14,630 nt of DNA, from the UHGV virus genome UHGV-0081264. One strand, 5' to 3'. Origin of the DNA: a virus. The notes under the pieces are model-generated. The model had not been told where the DNA came from. It saw nothing but the letters and a program-made list of their open reading frames with translations, and ran no database searches. Position numbers and translations under genes: made by a program. Below, one piece after another: positions 2,802 through 14,223 of the stretch; positions within the stretch are counted from its first letter, which is position 1; each line of letters begins with the position of its first letter.

Positions 2802-4723
2802 TATTCATCTCCAGATAATGCCCGCGCGTAATCCGCCAGGGTCTTGTTATTGTTACGGCTGCCTTCTTCCTCCAGCAGGCTGGCCAGAAGTGAATCAAGA
2901 TTTAGCTGCCAGCGGGATATGCTTATACGCAGCGCCGCCAGTGCATAAACAAAGCAATCGAGCGCCTCATTTCGTCGTTTTTTGCTGTCCCAGACGATCT
3001 TTTTCTTTCCGCCTACCCATTTTTCCACCTGCTCTTCAGCTGTTAGTTGTTGGGCCTCTGTTAGATCGTAGATTTCTGGGTTATTCGGGAAATGAACCGC
3101 TCCCGCCAGCGGCTCGTCTCTTTGCGCCACCAGCGTGAAACGGTTATAAATCTGCTCTTTTGCGGTGTCTGTTCCTACCTCTGTGAGGTAAACACCATTC
3201 TTGTTACGCTTGCGTGGCATGTTCGCCACTGGCTTTCCATAAACCGACGCCCCCTTTATAGGGATCACACGAAACAGACCGTGTTTTTTTGAGCGGTTGT
3301 AGACGATGGTGGGATCAATGCCGCCAATATCCCAGCAAGTGCGGGATATAACCATTTCGAGACCGTTCTGGCGCTTATACGTCCTGTTGATCGCTTCATC
3401 AACTCGAGCGAGAGTCGACTCATCATCATGACGACCCATAATGATAATTTTGTCGATAAGCCAGCTTTCCTCTCCCGGCCCCCATCCCCAAACACGCATT
3501 TCGTAACGGTCAAGCTGGGAGTCAATACCCGCTGTCAGATATGCCACTCGCTCCGGCACAGACGCTTCAAAGTGCTCTTTTCGTTCCGCTAAAACTTCAG
3601 CATCGGGTCGTTCACCTATTTTCGGTTCCCACGTTTCGCCCAGGGTCGTGTTAACGAAAGTTTTTCGCTTACCCGTATCACCTTTTGTTTTTATCCAGTC
3701 CTTGACGATCTGCACCCAGGTTGTGAACGGGCTATATGCGGTCCAGATGTGGAATGTAACGCTGTCAGGAGGTTCAATTTCGGTACCGGATGAAGAAAAC
3801 CAGTTAAGGCCGTCTCGTGTCCAGATACCTGTTTCATCACAAATATACCTGGCCTCCAGAAATTCCAGCTCCTGTTGTTTAATCACACAGGCATTGTGTT
3901 CACAGAGGTAGTAAACGCTGGCAGGTTCTCCCGGAGACCATTTGAAGCCAAATGGTGTCTCTTTATCACCGAATTTCAGATACTGCTCTTCCCCACAGTG
4001 TGGGCATGGAACATGGAACCGAAGAAAATGTTCAGACTCCTTAGCAGCTCTTTCTATCTGGCACGTACCTTTGACTTTCGGTGTAGATCCGCGAATGGAT
4101 TTCGGCCATACAGAACCCTCAATACGCTTATCACCCAGAAAGGTGGGAGAACCTTCTTTCTCGATGTCATCATCGAAAGCGGCGAGCTCGTCGTAGCCAG
4201 CCACATCAACTGATTTTTCACGGTAGTTTTTTGCAGCCTTACCGCCCAGGCACCAGAAACCACGACCATTCGAGAAACGCTTCATGCTCAGCGTATTGTC
4301 CCGGTGTTTTTTACCGTACCAGGGAGCAAGCGCCAGCAACGTCGGAATATCACGAATGGTCGGTTCTACATGAGACTTCATGAAGTTTTCAGCATCACCG
4401 TCGGTTGGTAACCATATTAGGGAGTTACGCTGTTTATGTTGGATGAAATATGCGTAAACGCCGAGCAACATTTTTGAGTAGCCGACACGAGCCGATTTAA
4501 CGACATTCACCTCGCGAATATAGTCATTACCCATCGCATTCATAATTGCACGCTGAAATGGCAGTGTTTCCCAGCGCCCTTCCTGGTAGGCAGACTCTTT
4601 CGGGAGATAATAATTCTCATCTGCCCATTCAACTGCTGTTTGCGGTTGCGGCCGGTACAGCGAACGTAACCCCGCCCGCGCAGAGTGCTGCAGCCCCTTA
4701 ACCTGACTGTTCGATATATTCAC
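2801..4723 (-). CDS. A: Terminase large subunit, lambda gpA-like
   Basis: 640-aa ORF with GTG start (GTGAATATATCG..., as I recall for lambda A). MNISNSQV...[36 protein letters not shown]... is collinear with lambda gpA. 5' end overlaps the Nu1 3' end. Confidence 0.95.
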
Positions 4724-5243
4724 TCAGCAACCCCGGTATCATTTCATCCAGCGCAGCTGCCTTGTTCATGGCCTTAATGATGTCCTTCTTGAGGAAATCA
4801 ATATGTCGGTTCTCCAGCTCCGGGAAGCGCCGCTGAACCGACAGAGGTATTCCATCGAGAATGCTGGCGATTTCTCCGGCTACCCGCGACAGCACGAACG
4901 TGCAGAATGCGGTCTCCACCACTTCAGCGGACTCTTTTGCATTTTTTAATTCCTGAGCGTCAGCCTGAGCTCGCGTAAGTCGGTGTCGCTCATATTCAAT
5001 CGTGCCAGGTTGAAGATCGGACTCAGAAGCGATACGGAGATCTTCAACTTCCTTCCGCAACTTTTCATTTTCTATAGCTGCATCGCGCGCACTGTACCAT
5101 TCGATTGCAGCAGCAGATTCAAAGAGAACCTCATTACCTTTGCCACCACCGCGGACAACCGGCATACCTTGCTCCTGCCAGTTCTGAATCGTTCGGACGC
5201 TTACCCCGAAAATTTCGGATAAGCGTTTTTTGTTAACCTCCAT
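4698..5243 (-). CDS. Nu1: Terminase small subunit, lambda Nu1-like
   Basis: 181-aa ORF with ATG start. MEVNKKRLSEIFGVSVRTIQNWQEQGMPV... carries the Nu1 winged-HTH N-terminus. Lies immediately downstream of cos on the minus strand. Confidence 0.95.
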   Translation of the reverse strand: MEVNKKRLSEIFGVSVRTIQNWQEQGMPVVRGGGKGNEVLFESAAAIEWYSARDAAIENEKLRKEVEDLRIASESDLQPGTIEYERHRLTRAQADAQELKNAKESAEVVETAFCTFVLSRVAGEIASILDGIPLSVQRRFPELENRHIDFLKKDIIKAMNKAAALDEMIPGLLSEYIEQSG

Positions 5244-6072: not shown

Positions 6073-6111
6073 AGCTGAAAGACTTTCTACGATGTGCGCG
6101 TGCGATGCGCA

Positions 6112-6134
6112 TAAAAAAGCCGCGTGATGGCGGC
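6112..6134 (-). terminator. Intrinsic terminator (minus strand)
   Basis: Minus-strand GCCGC-catcac-GCGGC hairpin followed by TTTTTTAT (plus-strand A6 at 6113..6118). Confidence 0.55.
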
Positions 6135-6264
6135 TACTGTTTGAATATCAGGGTGTTGTTTCGTCTTAACCCTGGTTAATGTAGGCATTCAGCCCGTCGG
6201 TGGTGGGACACTGGCGCACTTAATAAAGAGTAATGGCTGATTACCTCAGAATAAGGAATCAAAA

Positions 6265-6525
6265 ATGTCAGAAGGTTTTGGTTTAAAAGAAAAGGTTGAG
6301 CAGTTAGAAAAAGAATTAGCCGTACAAAAAATAGCAAATCAGCTTGCTTTTGGAGCACTAATTAAAGCAGTTAATGAGCTGTACCCGAACAAAGATTTAT
6401 ATGATGGGTTGACAAAATTTGTCCAGGAAAAACTTGATCCTGAACGTGTTAAAAACATCCCTAATCTTCACGAGGCCTTTCTAGAAGCTGCGAAAATACT
6501 GAGGACTGACGCATCTCCTGAATAA
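6265..6525 (+). CDS. Hypothetical small protein, 86 aa, plus strand
   Basis: ATG start with an AAGGAA Shine-Dalgarno 7 nt upstream, AT-rich, opposite orientation to the phage late operon. Its 3' end overlaps a minus-strand small ORF. Confidence 0.45.
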   Translation: MSEGFGLKEKVEQLEKELAVQKIANQLAFGALIKAVNELYPNKDLYDGLTKFVQEKLDPERVKNIPNLHEAFLEAAKILRTDASPE

Positions 6526-6619
6526 TTTTATCAACAAAGGCAGTTGTGTCCTCTTGCTTTTCATTCACAATGCATGTGACTGCCTTTTCTAAAGCTGTAA
6601 TTCGTTCTTCAAGTGTCAT
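6461..6619 (-). CDS. Hypothetical small protein, about 52 aa (MTLEERITALEKAV...)
   Basis: ATG at 6619 preceded by AGGAGT about 5 nt upstream. The track's longer version starts at 6643. An operator-like repeat array lies immediately upstream. Convergent overlap with the 6265..6525 ORF, so one of the two may be spurious. Confidence 0.3.
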   Translation of the reverse strand: MTLEERITALEKAVTCIVNEKQEDTTAFVDKIIQEMRQSSVFSQLLERPRED

Positions 6620-6649
6620 ACCCACTCCTGTCATTGGCTTCAAAATGAT

Positions 6650-6730
6650 AAACCCCGCATTTGCAAGTCCTATTTATACCCCGCAGGGGATAAAAACCAT
6701 ATTATCCGCTTGCGGGGATAACCATTATCA
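6650..6730. promoter_or_regulatory. Array of three CCCCGCA-core palindromic or half-palindromic sites
   Basis: Plus strand reads ATAAACCCCGCA (site 1), TTTATACCCCGCAGGGGATAAA (site 2, near-palindrome) and, in reverse, TTATCCCCGCAAGCGGATAA (site 3, palindromic TTATCC/GGATAA ends). Lies between the stop at 6760 and the start at 6619. Confidence 0.4.
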
Positions 6731-6759
6731 AGCCCACCAGTAGATGGGCTTTGTAATGG

Positions 6760-7017
6760 CTACTTCGCTTTTGCTTCCGCTCGCTTACGCCGGCGCTCTT
6801 CTTTCCTCTCGGCTTTTGCCATGTCCATGAATGCCTGCATGATCGAGTTCCGCATCATGTAGCTAACAAAGTGATGATTGACACAGCCGTTGAGGCGCAG
6901 CTGCTCGCCAAACTCATCCACCGAGGCCAATGCTTCCATCATGCCCTTCTCGCCTTTCATGAACTCTGAGAAGTCGCGCCCCGCTCTGGAGGCGCATTCT
7001 ATTATTCGGGTGCTCAT
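6760..7017 (-). CDS. Hypothetical small protein, about 85 aa, translationally coupled to the KilA-N gene
   Basis: ATG at 7017..7015 sits immediately after the upstream TGA (TGATCATG). Lys/Arg/Glu-rich C-terminus. The track's longer version (start 7077) overlaps the upstream gene in another frame. Confidence 0.45.
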   Translation of the reverse strand: MSTRIIECASRAGRDFSEFMKGEKGMMEALASVDEFGEQLRLNGCVNHHFVSYMMRNSIMQAFMDMAKAERKEERRRKRAEAKAK

Positions 7018-7019
7018 GA

Positions 7020-7748
7020 TCAGGCCGCCGCATAGAGCAATTTCATCTGCCCTTTCACCGGGAATGCCGACATGCAACGCGCTTCGAAATCACGATAATC
7101 AGAGCACCCATTGGCAATGCTGGTAACGGCAATGATCTGTCGCTCAACCAATGTCAGCGCGTCAGGTTTAAGGTGCTGATGGATTTTGTCTCCCGCAGCC
7201 AGCCGTCTTTTAACCTCTGCATATACTTCTGGTGGTAATACCTGGCCATATACCCACTTGGCACTGATCATCCCAAATAGTGCGGGGCGACGACCTGGTC
7301 GATGACGGGGCAGCCCTGACATTTTGAACATCGCAGAATAAAACGGATCGCTAAACCTCTTTTCCCATGGCTGAGATTTATCCAGAAGGAAAATAGCCTT
7401 TATTCTTTCATCGTCGATATGATGAACGGAACCCTGAATGATTGCGTCAATTTGCTCATCACACCAGATCTCAAAATCTACAGAAAGCCATCGAGCAAAT
7501 CTGACCGCCAGCTTTGGGTGAAGCCATGTTCCGCCGCCACGGTCTTTGCGAGCGCGGCTGGTTTTTACATATGTGATATTCCCATATCTACTCTTTAACG
7601 CCTCGATGTAACGGACAGTCTCAGGAAGCCTAAGCCACTGAGCCGGCTCCTTGTTGAACTTGTCAGCTGCCGCAGTCGCGTCAAACCAGCCATCGTCAGA
7701 AAAACGCATGGGATGGCCTTCGAAATCAATCGGGATGATATTGGACAT
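7020..7748 (-). CDS. KilA-N domain protein
   Basis: Likely start ATG at 7748 (MSNIIPIDFEGHPMRF...) with AAGGT about 7 nt upstream; the track extends to a GTG at 7823. The GGTWLHPKLAVRFARWLSVDFEIWCDEQI segment fits the KilA-N/APSES-type motif as I recall it. Confidence 0.7.
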   Translation of the reverse strand: MSNIIPIDFEGHPMRFSDDGWFDATAAADKFNKEPAQWLRLPETVRYIEALKSRYGNITYVKTSRARKDRGGGTWLHPKLAVRFARWLSVDFEIWCDEQIDAIIQGSVHHIDDERIKAIFLLDKSQPWEKRFSDPFYSAMFKMSGLPRHRPGRRPALFGMISAKWVYGQVLPPEVYAEVKRRLAAGDKIHQHLKPDALTLVERQIIAVTSIANGCSDYRDFEARCMSAFPVKGQMKLLYAAA

Positions 7749-7942: not shown

Positions 7943-8845
7943 TTAAGACTGGATATTCCAAATCATTGCGTTACCGTTATGATTTTCAATGATTTTTGCC
8001 AGTGGTGCTCCACCAAAAGAATGCATGTAGCTGTGATGTATAGTCAAAACCAAATCTTGAAGTACTTGATCACTTTCAAGTTCGGTAACATTCAACCCAA
8101 TTTTCTGCGCCTTATCAAAATGAATATGACGCGAGTGGGTATAGGTTGTGTGATGGTTGTTTAACTCTGAACAAACATGTGTTGCTTTTGATTCTGCCTC
8201 AGGATCATTATCAAACATGCCTGTCATAAGCCAATGCTTAACAATCTCATTTGCCCATTTGATTGCTTTCTCACACTCGCCGATGATCGTCGGGTTTAGC
8301 TTTTGAAGAATGAACTGCCACATCTGAACAGCTGCGGGATTTTGAAAAATTTCCGTCTGCGCACGATTCCATTCTTCAATGATGGCATGGGTGGAGAAAC
8401 CGTTGAACTGAGGATCAATTGGGCCAATGTTGGACTGTTTACCCATGATGATTTCATTGGCACAACATGCAAGCATAGTTCCGCAGGACATTGAAATCAT
8501 AGGAACAATTGCTCTGATGTTAGTTCCAAACTTCGACCTTAAGTAATGCCCGATTGATTCCAAAGCGGCAATATCACCACCTGGAGTATGAAGTATCAAA
8601 TCCAACCCTTTTGATACATCTAAACCATTGATGGCTGTCATCAACCCGTTCTTATCATCATCAGTCATCTGAGTAAGATGGCGTACTTCTGCACCACCAT
8701 GCTGTAACCACCCTGAGTAATATGTGATTACATTTCTTCCAGTATGATTCGAAAGTTGAGATAAGTATTTACGGCGAACCTCATCCATAGGACTTTTATG
8801 GGCGAGAGCCGTTATCTCGCCCAGTACGTCGCTCCAATTAGGCAT
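7943..8845 (-). CDS. ClpP/S49-fold serine peptidase, SDH-family-like, 300 aa
   Basis: ATG start 3 nt after the upstream ORF's stop (coupled). LILHTPGGDIAALESIG resembles the ClpP/SppA oxyanion-loop motif, and PMISMSCGTMLA resembles the nucleophile region. AT-rich relative to the head genes. Confidence 0.7.
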   Translation of the reverse strand: MPNWSDVLGEITALAHKSPMDEVRRKYLSQLSNHTGRNVITYYSGWLQHGGAEVRHLTQMTDDDKNGLMTAINGLDVSKGLDLILHTPGGDIAALESIGHYLRSKFGTNIRAIVPMISMSCGTMLACCANEIIMGKQSNIGPIDPQFNGFSTHAIIEEWNRAQTEIFQNPAAVQMWQFILQKLNPTIIGECEKAIKWANEIVKHWLMTGMFDNDPEAESKATHVCSELNNHHTTYTHSRHIHFDKAQKIGLNVTELESDQVLQDLVLTIHHSYMHSFGGAPLAKIIENHNGNAMIWNIQS

Positions 8846-9419: not shown

Positions 9420-9956
9420 TCATTTTCGTAACTTCTCAATCTCTCGTATACCCGCCAGGTTATTGTTGCCCTTCTCAATAACAGCCAGCAAAGGTTCAAT
9501 CCAGAGGACGGCCTGGCAATACGTCATTGAGCTGGCGGCAGCGGTACTATCATCGGTTGCGTTAGTGTTCCCGGTATCGGGGTGCATTGCGCTGGCACGT
9601 AAACGGTACGCGTATTTGAGCAGCCCACCAGCGACATCAGCAGGAACAGGCAGATCACAGGTCTTTTCACGTCGGAGAATCTCCCGGTATTCGATGACAG
9701 TTTTCTCAGTACCGGCATCGATCAGCGAGTTAAGGCGGTTGGCGTTCTCTGCTATCTGGTTAAACCGATTGAAGTTGAAAGCCTGTGTAGTTATCACCGT
9801 CGCCTGCAGCGCGTTATCATTACGTAATACCCGATTCTCACTCTGTTCTGTTTCAAGAGCTGAGCGGCTACGAACCAGTAATACGCTAAGCACTGCAATA
9901 ATGATTACGACAGCCACCAGCAGAACCGCAACAATCGTAATTTTTCTGGGTTTCAT
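9420..9956 (-). CDS. Rz: i-spanin (Rz-like)
   Basis: ATG start overlapping the endolysin stop (TGATG). N-terminal transmembrane segment (KITIVAVLLVAVVIIIAVLSVLLV), then a charged, helix-rich periplasmic domain. An o-spanin ORF is embedded in the +1 frame. Confidence 0.8.
   Translation of the reverse strand: MKPRKITIVAVLLVAVVIIIAVLSVLLVRSRSALETEQSENRVLRNDNALQATVITTQAFNFNRFNQIAENANRLNSLIDAGTEKTVIEYREILRREKTCDLPVPADVAGGLLKYAYRLRASAMHPDTGNTNATDDSTAAASSMTYCQAVLWIEPLLAVIEKGNNNLAGIREIEKLRK
9524..9718 (-). CDS. Rz1: o-spanin (Rz1-like lipoprotein) embedded within Rz
   Basis: Entirely inside Rz in another frame. Lipobox LVGC followed by a Pro-rich tail (PIPGTLTQPMIVPLPPAQ). The true start may lie downstream of the ATG at 9718. 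Confidence 0.7.
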   Translation of the reverse strand: MPVLRKLSSNTGRFSDVKRPVICLFLLMSLVGCSNTRTVYVPAQCTPIPGTLTQPMIVPLPPAQ

Positions 9957-10528
9957 CAGAATACCCCCGGAACTGATACCGGAATGCCTGGGTTAAGCGG
10001 CCCGAGCCCATCACCAAGAACCTGAGGTTTTTCTGCCCACAGGCAAACTTCACGCTCAATCTCACGCCGGGTAATCAACCCTTTCCATTGCTTACCACCG
10101 GCATATGTCCATCGACGAAGCTGATCACATGCGCCTTTGATATCACCCTGGTTTATTTTGTAGAGAAGAGTGGAGGTTTTGAAATTGCCAGCACCGACGT
10201 TGTAGACAAACGAGTAAAGAGCGCCCCGAGTAGTTTCAGGGATCGGAACCTTGATGTACGGATTAATCTGCTGCGCTACGGTGGTGAGGTCTTTATTAAG
10301 TAACGCTCGACACTCTGCTTTGGTGTAGGTCTTGCCGAGGATAATATCTTTACCAGTATGGCCCCAGCATACAGTCCACACTCCAACAACATCCCGATAA
10401 GGCTGATAGCGTACACCTTCAAGGCCATCATTACCCGTTGGGCCAGTAATCAACGCCGCAGCGATAGCAATAGCGCCAGCGGGTATCGCTGCAATAACGC
10501 TATTCTTCAGCTTTGGTGACATTGCCAT
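9956..10528 (-). CDS. R: SAR endolysin (GH24, T4-type lysozyme fold)
   Basis: ATG start. Gly/Ala-rich weakly hydrophobic N-terminus ([22 protein letters not shown]) typical of a signal-anchor-release domain, followed by the E-x8-D-x5-T catalytic motif ([24 protein letters not shown]). Confidence 0.85.
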
Positions 10529-10778
10529 TAAGCCGGTCCTCCCTTTCCTTTTTCCTGTAATACCAATTCACTGCACAGGTGATTACAGTGCATGCGATAC
10601 CGACAATAATTGCCCAGTCGCTCAGGCTTAACCCTGCAATTCTGTCGGCCAACATCCAGGACACCTCTTTTGCTGTTTTAGCTGTTTCGGCATATGCCTT
10701 CGCTGATACACCGCAGCCGGTCAGCGTGGTTCCTGTTCCATATGAAAGTCTGCTGTAAATGGTGCTCATTCTGGTCAT
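10500..10778 (-). CDS. S: Class II holin, pinholin-like (phage 21 S-like), with dual-start motif
   Basis: Starts MTRMSTIY (Met1 and Met4). Two transmembrane segments; the C-terminal end ...[13 protein letters not shown] parallels S21 ...NLYFKIREDRRK as I recall it. Strong GGAGGTGAGG Shine-Dalgarno. 3' end overlaps the endolysin start. Confidence 0.8.
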
Positions 10779-10934: not shown

Positions 10935-11576
10935 TTAAAAGTTTAAAGGAACCATAAAGCTACCAGGCTCTGCACCAGCTTCTTTATTTATTTCTTTACG
11001 GATTACCTCATTAATCTGAAAAGCCTCATTGTATACTTTTTCTAAGTTAATTGACGCCTTCATATTATAGTATGTTTTTTCCTCACAAACATATAACCTT
11101 ATCGGATATGGCCTAGGGTTGATTGCCTTCCAGTGGGAGATCACAAAATTATAAACTGCAATACCATGACCTTTCATCTTCCCTGCTGTAACATCAATGT
11201 TTAGCTGATCTAAATACTCATCGAAGTGTTGCAAGGTGTTTCTCACCCTCACGGAATTAATTTCCTTAATTTCAATATCTTTTATTTTTTCTTGAAGGTA
11301 ATTACTTCGCTCAATATGCAATCTGAATTGTTCAGGGGATTCTTCCCTAGTCTGATTTTTAGGAACTGCGATTAGTTTCTTGACGTTAGCCGCATCTGAA
11401 AGAATACTATTTATTAATATATGAATATTGTAATCAATTTTAAAGTAGTAACCAGCATCAGGAAGTGGTGTCTCATGAAAGAGCTCTTCACAGCGTGTTT
11501 TTATCGAATGAGTTAACAACCATAATTCGTGCAAATAAATAAAATTAAGTTTCATTTGCTCAAAGGTTTTTGACAT
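10935..11576 (-). CDS. Hypothetical protein, 213 aa, AT-rich accessory gene between Q and the holin
   Basis: ATG start with GGAG about 9 nt upstream and its own terminator downstream. Strongly AT-rich, with Lys/Ile/Asn/Tyr-rich composition. I do not recognise the protein. Confidence 0.6.
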   Translation of the reverse strand: MSKTFEQMKLNFIYLHELWLLTHSIKTRCEELFHETPLPDAGYYFKIDYNIHILINSILSDAANVKKLIAVPKNQTREESPEQFRLHIERSNYLQEKIKDIEIKEINSVRVRNTLQHFDEYLDQLNIDVTAGKMKGHGIAVYNFVISHWKAINPRPYPIRLYVCEEKTYYNMKASINLEKVYNEAFQINEVIRKEINKEAGAEPGSFMVPLNF

Positions 11577-12773: not shown

Positions 12774-13463
12774 TTAATCCAGTTTTGCAATATTTTGGTG
12801 TGAATTTGTCGCCTTTTGTTGTGAACGTGATCGCGTTACTTGCAATAAAGCCTCGCTGTCGAGGCTCATGAAGATTCGCTTCATCTCCACCCAGCGGTCG
12901 GTAAACGTCTCTGACCAGTTCTTTGGTGTCACGCCCACCAATTCTGCCAGCGCCTGGTACTCGTATGTCTCACGCCCACCCAACCCCGCTTTCACATCCT
13001 GCGCCGCCAGCCAGATTAGCTTCTTCAGTCGCTCCATCGTTTTGCCTGCCACCCGCTTACCTTCCAGTTGCTGGCTGAACTCTGCCCACGCCCACTGGGT
13101 GATCGCCACCTGGTATTCGAAGCGGATATTCTCGCTGTAGTTCCACAGAAGCCATGCTTTCTGGTGGTCTTCAAGCGACAGCACCGCGCGGCGCCACGAT
13201 GCGGTCACAAACTCAACCGGCCCCACCAGCGCGATAGATGATCCCTTTGCGCGGGACTGGCTGCCGCTCATCGCCGGGCCGTCAGGGTTAACTTTCCGAC
13301 CAGTGACCGGGTCGGTGATTTTCTTCCTGCCCCGGCTGCGCGCCGTCGCGGTGAACTGCGCGTTTTCGGCGAAAGCTACCAGCTGCCCTTTCGTCGCCCC
13401 GCTGAGGTCTGCGGTCGCCACAATGAGCTGCTGACGTACGTATTCCAGTTGCTGACTGTTCAT
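12774..13463 (-). CDS. Putative late-gene antitermination protein Q (non-lambda type)
   Basis: 229-aa ORF, ATG start with GAAGGAAG Shine-Dalgarno. Sits between NinG and the lysis region where lambdoid phages carry Q. The sequence is unlike lambda Q, so the family assignment is by position and weak recollection. Confidence 0.5.
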   Translation of the reverse strand: MNSQQLEYVRQQLIVATADLSGATKGQLVAFAENAQFTATARSRGRKKITDPVTGRKVNPDGPAMSGSQSRAKGSSIALVGPVEFVTASWRRAVLSLEDHQKAWLLWNYSENIRFEYQVAITQWAWAEFSQQLEGKRVAGKTMERLKKLIWLAAQDVKAGLGGRETYEYQALAELVGVTPKNWSETFTDRWVEMKRIFMSLDSEALLQVTRSRSQQKATNSHQNIAKLD

Positions 13464-13572: not shown

Positions 13573-14223
13573 TCATGCTGCCTCCTGTCGGCGGGCGCGG
13601 CGTTTTTCCAGCGCGCGGGCTTTGCGTGTGAAAATGGATTTGATGCGCTGAAGGTATGGGATATCGAAGCGGCGCGGATCGTTATCAGATTCAAGGCGCT
13701 CGACACGTTCCTGTCCGATACGCTCAATCAGACGGATCCGGTACTCGACAGCATTGCCGCTCAACTGCCGGTTGCAGCGGGTGCAAGCGGAGTGGACGTT
13801 AAACACGTTGAATTTGAGATGCGATGCAGCGCCGCGCGAACGGTAATGGCTGGCGTCAATGGCGCTGCCTGTCAGGTAATTGCTCTTGCCGATGAGTGGA
13901 TTGCCGCAGCTGACGCATTCTTTTCCCTCGTCCCGGATCCGTATGTAGCGGTTGAAGGCCGATTGGGCCTCCTTATCCCACTGGGATTTAGACTTTAGTG
14001 ACTCGCGCTTTTCTTGTCGGCGTTTGCGCCCTTCCTTCTCTGCCTCTTTCTGCTCCTTGATCCGTTTAGCCACGGCTTTCACCTTCTCCTTTTCGCGCTC
14101 TTCCATCGCGAGGATTGCGCCGTGCTCCGGGCAGCACCAGCGGATCCGGATGTCGTAGAATTTCGGCACGAAGTATTCCCCGCATACTTTGCACTTACGG
14201 CGGGATGGTTTACGCATGTTCAC
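13573..14223 (-). CDS. ninG: NinG/Rap-like recombination protein
   Basis: Track start is a GTG at 14223; an ATG lies two codons in. [11 protein letters not shown]...WCCPEHG... and the C-terminal ...[20 protein letters not shown]...RRQEAA parallel lambda NinG as I recall it. Confidence 0.85.

Follow-up and report, generated by a model that had tools for sequence, protein, structure and literature searches.

Paired HipB-type operator sequences without a hipBA operon in the late region of a lambdoid prophage

HipB operators and comparable phage systems

HipBA is a classic persistence toxin-antitoxin module. Its antitoxin HipB, a repressor of the Xre/Cro type with a Cro-like fold, acts at the four hipBA operators of E. 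coli (O1 to O4), for which the consensus TATCCN8GGATA has been published. Binding is cooperative, the operator is bent by about 70 degrees and HipA joins as a co-repressor. The O1O2 probe has a 20-8-20 layout (TTATCCGCTTAAGGGGATAT-TATAAGTT-TTATCCTTTAGTGAGGATAA), with a Kd of 0.6 nM for HipB. Operator DNA (in vitro) and HipA each protect HipB from Lon.

The DNA analysed here, called the window, is a stretch of 14,630 nucleotides from UHGV virus genome UHGV-0081264. It contains two adjacent sites of the HipB type, which probably form an orphan operator pair that would be bound by host HipB or by HipB-HipA, judging from sequence comparison. The consensus is the same as that of hipBA O1-O4 in its extended form (TTATCCsyT..A..GGATAA). 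So are the 20-bp size of the sites and their pairing with an 8-bp spacer, the K-12 operators being arranged as O1-8-O2 and O3-8-O4. Whereas hipBA has four sites, the window has two, which are not followed by hipB or hipA and are not overlapped by a promoter. Unlike hipBA, the pair lies in a phage late operon, after the lysis and KilA-N genes, with an apparent terminator remnant and unrelated small ORFs next to it. Lin et al. (2013), as summarised in PMC3920263, reported 33 extra HipB palindromes in E. coli K-12, for example at relA, eutH and fadH. These sites likewise lie outside hipBA, and they are taken to extend the antitoxin to other DNA. There they are sites in the promoters of host genes, found by a search of the K-12 genome, whereas the present sites are in phage DNA, form a full pair with native spacing and occur in many phages. 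A literature search for HipB together with phages found no description of phage-borne HipB operators.

The lambdoid CI/Cro arrays (OR1-3 and OL1-3) are tandem palindromes on which helix-turn-helix dimers bind cooperatively. The window pair differs from them in sequence, in number of sites and in spacing, and it has neither divergent promoters nor an adjacent repressor gene. The pair lies in the late region, whereas the CI/Cro arrays lie in the immunity region, and the motif was absent from the immunity region of phage mEp213. A CI/Cro-type array would comprise three related sites, a promoter that overlaps them and, next to them, the gene of the protein that binds; no such array was found at the locus. 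The Dmd protein of T4 and the pseudo-ToxI RNA are phage counter-measures that replace an antitoxin. Their aim would be shared by the pair if the sink proposed below is right, namely a host toxin kept neutralised during infection. They act as protein and RNA, whereas here a DNA site would stabilise or park the host's own antitoxin-toxin complex.

The operator pair and its surroundings in the window

The window, which is read on the minus strand, comprises lambdoid prophage DNA of the late region. On that strand were found NinG (13573-14223), Q (12774-13463), the holin (10500-10778), the lysozyme (9956-10528) and an SDH/ClpP-like serine protease gene (7943-8845), a possible cargo gene between the lysis genes and KilA-N. 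The gene with KilA-N and P63C domains (7020-7748, minus strand) is the upstream neighbour of the pair here and is unlinked to it across phages. It is followed by an 85-aa ORF (phrog_875; 6760-7017, minus strand) whose stop codon abuts a hairpin. After the element, toward lower coordinates, come small ORFs, a phi80-like 155-aa ORF, cos, Nu1 (4698-5243), terminase A and portal. The placement of the sites given in the earlier note, 3' of the KilA-N gene pair and 5' of a 52-aa ORF with everything on the minus strand, was confirmed. E. coli O68:H12 strain 97.3 has the window DNA with 100% identity. Another possible cargo gene is a 213-aa ORF on the late-gene strand (10935-11576; 31-38% GC; no Pfam or PHROG match). 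It sits between Q and the holin, which is where stx is found in Shiga-toxin phages.

The 18-bp core TATCC-N8-GGATA was present in both sites, exactly in operator B (site 3; 6702-6721; TTATCCGCTTGCGGGGATAA) and with one mismatch in operator A (site 2; 6674-6693; TTATACCCCGCAGGGGATAA). The mismatch is TATAC in the left arm, and the same variant was seen in 8 of 26 unique distal sites. Operator B was identical to hipBA O1 at 17 of 20 positions, with three differences. Both sites also showed the extended preferences (T at position 1; C, G or T and not A at 7; C or T at 8; T at 9). The two 20-mers start at 6674 and 6702 and are separated by a spacer of 8 bp (6694-6701) that is free in sequence and fixed in length; operators, spacer and hairpin are given without strand. 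A weight matrix was built from 52 unique phage sites only and scanned over the K-12 hipBA locus, where the four operators scored 29.3, 24.6, 23.1 and 16.0 bits. The window sites scored 27.3 bits (operator B) and about 25 bits (operator A; 24.9-25.1 bits), as against a maximum of 18.5 bits in a shuffled 44-kb sequence. In the complete 44-kb genome of mEp213 the pair was the sole match to the matrix. Within the window, TATCC-N8-GGATA with at most one mismatch occurred nowhere but at sites 2 and 3 (shuffle expectation 0.27). Two matches were reached in just 6 of 200 window shuffles, adjacency not being demanded.

Three palindromic sites sharing a CCCCGCA core had been proposed here as a cooperative operator array. 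Sites 2 and 3 were found where they had been placed and beyond chance, and by sequence, length and spacing they belong to a known operator family; site 1 falls outside it. The heptamer CCCCGCA was present seven times in the window (2.1 expected), with three copies within 6653-6717. It had to be given up as the motif: it forms the variable centre of the sites, which changes from phage to phage and is not kept in related phages, whereas the conserved parts are the outer arms. The conserved feature is TTATCC(S)(Y)T-NN-A..GGGGATAA, in two copies 8 bp apart. In the comparison of phages, the outer arms TTATCC/GGATAA were conserved within the sites together with T9, A12 and G13-14, giving the phage consensus TTATCC-[C/G]-[C/T]-T-NN-A-GGGGATA-[A/T].

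No sigma-70-like promoter was predicted at the sites. By eye, TTGATA-19 bp-GATAAT could be read there, badly spaced for a promoter, and the -10 element that the hipBA spacer contains was not reproduced in the phage spacers, as read from alignments. The pair does not lie upstream of a hipB-hipA operon whose promoter it would overlap. Since the window has neither hipB nor hipA and no predicted promoter at the pair, the sites were classed as an orphan operator copy and not as a hipBA regulatory region. The absence of a predicted promoter at the pair and the arm mismatch in site 2 count against the assignment to HipB. Where operator B joins the hairpin, GATAACCATTATC is formed at 6716-6728. It resembles the core of the Fur box, which is GATAATCATTATC.

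Site 1 (6644-6667, minus strand) looks like a decayed intrinsic terminator of the late-gene strand. It can be folded into a weak terminator-like hairpin with a U-rich tail, CUUGC-AAAU-GCGGG followed by GUUUAUCAUUUU. A terminator scan flagged 6667-6654 plus the T-rich tail on the minus strand (stem of five pairs, three of them G-C; tail GTTTATCATT), and the phage-site matrix gave no match of 8 bits or more at site 1 (6647-6659). By eye, about 20 of 27 positions agreed with the strong terminator CCTCGCA-CCC-GCGGGG-TTTTTT that follows the distal operator in loci of the L021 type. Terminators of that CCTCGCA...GCGGGG kind were also found in several other contexts of the pair, and a GCGGGG(C)TTTTT terminator stood within 60 nt after the pair in 19 of 118 unique pairs. 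Because of this likeness to the terminators after the pair in other phages, the CCCCGCA of site 1 is read as part of a terminator stem and not as an operator half-site.

The stop codon of the small ORF upstream is immediately followed by the long hairpin (6722-6759; arms CCATTATCAAGCCCA and TGGGCTTTGTAATGG). A small hairpin just upstream of the sites had been announced at 6737-6758. It exists, but AAGCCCA lies at 6730-6736 and TGGGCTT at 6745-6751. The full arms are 6722-6736 and 6745-6759, about 7 nt below the position first given. Window positions 6100-6758 were 99% identical to phages mEp213 and mEp043, and positions 6723-7200 matched HK97, mEp234 and relatives. As mEp213-like DNA extends to 6758 and HK97-like DNA starts at 6723, the hairpin is a mosaic joint. 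More than 140 phage records (lambda-like, HK97-like and P22-like) contain it directly after Rz, lysis, or KilA-N or Rha genes, with or without the operator pair. The hairpin is a separate conserved module junction outside the operator array, and it might act as a recombination linker, a processing site or a weak terminator. Its flanks are invariant and its loop is variable, with GCCCA/TGGGC or CACC/GGTG as inner pairing. Chi (GCTGGTGG) was present on the late-gene strand as CCACCAGC five times in the window (3127, 5743, 9625, 9914 and 13223) and not once in the opposite orientation, about 0.2 per strand being expected by an arithmetic estimate. Chi was also seen in the loop of 25 of 60 distinct hairpin versions, and the loop in the window (6735-6742) has ACTGGTGG, one mismatch off. 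The orientation of Chi in the window presumably suits RecBCD entry from the right cos end.

Downstream of the pair, a putative 52-aa ORF (6461-6620, minus strand; ATG at 6620, RBS AGGAGT) starts 54 nt from operator A. It is convergent with an 86-aa ORF (6265-6525, plus strand) and overlaps it by 65 bp in low-GC DNA (38-39% GC). Both ORFs are called in the 2012 record of mEp213, whereas PGAP and the 2025 record call only the 86-aa ORF. Local tblastn with the two ORFs returned identical copies only, and their PHROG matches mirror earlier annotation. In the 52-aa ORF no Pfam domain was found. The ORF had no counterpart at nearly all other pair loci, many unrelated genes standing there instead. 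Its N-terminus weakly resembled one small ORF after another phage's pair (E = 3e-4, single comparison), and on this likeness the putative ORF may be a gene.

Some further elements were considered and set aside. The prophage small RNAs AgvB, AsxR and Pas are mapped in the literature near Q and the lysis genes and not at this element. The DnaA box is TTATCCACA, and the phage half-site TTATCCsyT is without its CACA part. The iterons of the lambda O protein (ATCCCTC-N5-GAGGGAT) have similar arms with a spacing 3 bp off, and the motif was absent from the remainder of mEp213, including the O gene. As it occurs nowhere else in mEp213, the motif is not used by the Cro/CI operators or by the replication origin of that phage.

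Occurrence of the pair in phages and bacterial genomes

In order to follow the element in other phages, 120 viral contigs were fetched via the hairpin sequence. Two 20-bp sites abutted the hairpin in about 40 of 90 distinct hairpin versions. In 40 phage loci the spacer was 8 bp long in 34 and 7 bp long in 6. When the window was aligned with ECP1, ev099, 2B8 and phi330, the two sites persisted and the CCCCGCA centres were lost. Conservation as a site was not seen for site 1. Neither ST64T nor HK97 had sites beside the hairpin. The pair recurs in many lambdoid phages, among them HK97, mEp213 and Stx phages, and lies there past the lysis genes, at boundaries between genes. The HK97 pair (TTATACCCTGCACGGGATAA-CTTAACTG-ATATCCCTTTTAACGGATAA) lies about 200 bp beyond the hairpin (about 788-835 of contig L002, about 38898-38945 of NC_002167.1). 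An unannotated small ORF (MAEIILMTEEQKFQLE...) follows it after 13 nt, ahead of the gp74 HNH endonuclease gene.

For a census of contexts, 118 unique pairs were defined. Hairpins of the window type abutted 35 of them, and 16 abutted a second hairpin type (CCATTACGATG...CATGGTAATGG). The pair occurred in at least five unrelated flanking contexts. On its upstream side lay the end of a likely spanin gene (Rz-type), the phrog_875 ORF or another neighbour. In many cases a small gene started 0-35 nt after the pair, with the start codon 0-12 nt away in some loci. These downstream genes were mutually unrelated (phrog_6581, phrog_698, phrog_10509, DUF2560, HNH endonuclease and others), and no helix-turn-helix or other DNA-binding Pfam domain was found in the genes beside the pair. 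When ORFs within 5 kb of 127 hairpin loci were clustered, no gene always accompanied the pair. Loci with the second hairpin type (L057, L105, L146, L172, L188, L202 and others) continue with an A-run and a terminator, and 11-12 nt past their pairs there is a conserved small gene that encodes about 70 aa (MSDIYQITLTTQTGETF...; phrog_6581) and has no Pfam domain. In another context, the pair has LexA boxes (e.g. ACTGTATATATAAACAGT) on one side and, on the other, the RBS for a gene of 62 aa (MQDYLLESLK..., phrog_698), as at about 6995-7095 of L152 and about 8866-8965 of L174, and also in L143, L187, L212 and L241. This arrangement suggests a dual control of the small gene, by the SOS response and by a HipB-type protein.

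Among 5426 complete E. coli genomes, 321 contained part of the element, O157:H7 being one of these, whereas the window's own version reached a query coverage of 80% or more in just 4 of the 5426. In the same set, hipB with its operators was found in 5262 genomes. Neither the window nor any of the 127 hairpin loci contained a HipB or HipA homologue, and a search for a phage-encoded HipB-like protein gave mEp213 Cro as its best match (E = 0.02).

One genome per bacterial species was scanned for TATCC-N8-GGATA-N10-TATCC-N8-GGATA, and at least 120 exact pairs were obtained. Among the 120 matches listed, 83 had within 400 bp a hipB homologue with 36-95% identity to E. coli HipB. hipA was nearly always beside hipB at those 83 loci, and the hosts were Enterobacterales, Vibrionales, Halomonas and others. 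At 31 of the 120 genomic pairs among the matches listed, the 8-kb locus had no E. coli-like hipB or hipA. These pairs (L246, L265-L267, L277, L278, L283, L350, L353, L355 and others) come from Pantoea, Aliivibrio, Vibrio, a Pseudomonas plasmid and other hosts. They could be orphans carried by prophages, or could belong to divergent Hip-type systems. When IMG/VR was scanned with the same exact-pair pattern, at least 120 viral contigs were obtained, whereas the chance expectation in such a viral collection is about 0.1 by our own arithmetic (20 fixed bases). Among the matches listed, hipB was found at none of 112 newly fetched viral loci, and the single viral hipA match in these 112 (L164) was a true hipBA fragment. 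At the free half-site positions (1 and 7-10), the base frequencies of 210 sites upstream of hipB and of 192 viral sites were correlated with r = 0.91. Viral pairs that lack hipB, with the same preferences at free positions, argue that the viral sites are HipB-type operators without the operon.

Alternative explanations and possible function

If the sites are operators, the protein that binds them could be encoded by the phage, beside the pair or elsewhere, and have a HipB-like specificity. The usual position of the pair, 0-35 nt before a small gene (phrog_6581, phrog_698, phrog_10509 or DUF2560), would fit this, as would the order of LexA boxes, pair and gene, which resembles a true regulatory region, and the 31 genomic pairs among the matches listed that have no E. 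coli-like hipB. However, the genes beside the pair change between phages, no DNA-binding Pfam domain is present in any of them, a gene of the HipB family was seen in none of the 127 + 112 viral loci among the matches listed, and the likeness to hipB-linked operators reaches positions that are unconstrained. In addition, mEp213 has no second copy of the motif, so that no autoregulated gene there carries it. A phage protein of this kind seems unlikely, although a binder other than HipB with the same specificity, from phage or host, is conceivable. That the pair is a functionless relic, derived from a hipBA-type promoter of which a piece was picked up a single time and then spread among lambdoid phages by recombination at a module boundary beside the linker hairpin, seems quite unlikely, even though the pair sits exactly at a mosaic joint, without hipBA or a predicted promoter, and adjoins an apparently decayed terminator in the window. 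The 118 unique pairs keep their arms and their 8-bp spacing while everything else (centres, spacer sequence and both flanks) has diverged or been exchanged, and the pair stands in the five or more unrelated contexts described above. That arms and spacing were held while the rest diverged indicates selection on the sites themselves.

The palindromes might instead work as RNA, as stem-loops of a late or antisense transcript that would stabilise it, mark a processing site, terminate transcription or belong to a small RNA. Folding is good on both strands (z = -4.4 and -5.4), an intrinsic terminator comes next in some phages so that the layout is like two hairpins and a terminator, and C-to-T changes in the left arm give G-U and not C-A pairs on the plus strand. 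Strong folding on both strands is to be expected since any palindrome must fold. Against a role as RNA, covariation did not exceed that of shuffles (84.0% of cells paired versus 84.1% shuffled, in 26 distinct sequences), and position pair 7-14 of site B was unpaired in 18 of the 26 and position pair 5-16 of site A in 12 of the 26. The arm sequence itself is conserved, beyond mere pairing, and stem-loops leave the identity with HipB operators, down to the flanking preferences, unexplained. No Rfam match was obtained at the element in a gathering search of the window, an E-value search of 6400-6900 and a gathering search of ten related loci; STnc100 and tRNAs were kilobases away. We regard RNA stem-loops as very unlikely. 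The model of the earlier note, in which three operator sites either form a promoter that the product of the 52-aa ORF autoregulates or are bound as an array by the KilA-N protein, has hardly any chance of being right. The position fits, between the KilA-N pair and an ORF with a good RBS, and so does the weak N-terminal likeness of that ORF to another one found after a pair. There are only two sites, however, without a predicted promoter, and the neighbouring ORFs have no DNA-binding domain. A homologue of the window's KilA-N protein was found within 2.5 kb of just 3 of the 118 unique pairs, 71 hairpin-bearing loci have the pair and not that protein, and in mEp213 an identical pair follows Rz immediately, a KilA-N gene being absent, all of which speaks against KilA-N as the binding protein. 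For the 52-aa ORF, the proposal of an autoregulated promoter met with no predicted promoter, no Pfam domain, no PGAP call and no conservation beside the pair.

We return to an orphan HipB-type operator pair as the favoured reading. A host HipB dimer, alone or carrying HipA, would bind both sites cooperatively and would bend the DNA as it does at hipBA. Two effects of such binding are about equally plausible on the data at hand. The pair could be a sink: replicating phage DNA would hold HipB in a DNA-bound and Lon-protected state and HipA in an operator-bound and inactive one. This would blunt HipA-driven translation arrest during lytic growth, or would shift hipBA autoregulation in lysogens. 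Alternatively, the pair could be a block to, or an operator for, transcription into the gene that starts just past it. A position directly before a terminator and not a gene, as in 19 of the 118 pairs, fits a sink and not an operator. Loci in which the next start codon is 0-12 nt away fit an operator, and the position right before start codons together with the LexA-box context argues for a transcriptional operator or roadblock. One pair per genome was found in the single complete phage genome scanned (mEp213), and one pair per genome is a modest sink before replication.

HipA molecules on adjacent operators are reported to dimerise in a way that occludes their active sites (Schumacher et al. 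2015). A phage-borne pair spaced as in hipBA would be well suited for parking inactive HipA-HipB, and phage replication would multiply it. A function in defence against phages has recently been validated for kinases of the HipA family, and, as such kinases can act against phages, a role of the pair in counter-defence or titration would be plausible. A broader proposal is that lambdoid phages carry replication-amplified DNA decoys which would capture Lon-resistant HipB and dock inactive HipA, and so prevent HipA-triggered arrest or retune hipBA. The arrest prevented would be abortive infection or persistence during lytic growth, and the retuning of hipBA would take place in lysogens with many such prophages, for example EHEC. 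We offer this proposal tentatively and consider it rather unlikely in its full form.

In annotation, palindromes of this kind will probably be misread as operators of the phage, as terminators or as small RNAs. The likeness of the sites to hipBA operators suggests that such phages may plug into, or disarm, the HipA growth-arrest kinase of the host. If host HipB really binds there, the pair might be used as a DNA-based phage counter-measure, or by a prophage for reading the HipB level of its host. With host HipB on it, the pair would provide a direct physical link between a chromosomal toxin-antitoxin module and temperate phages such as HK97 and the Shiga-toxin phages.
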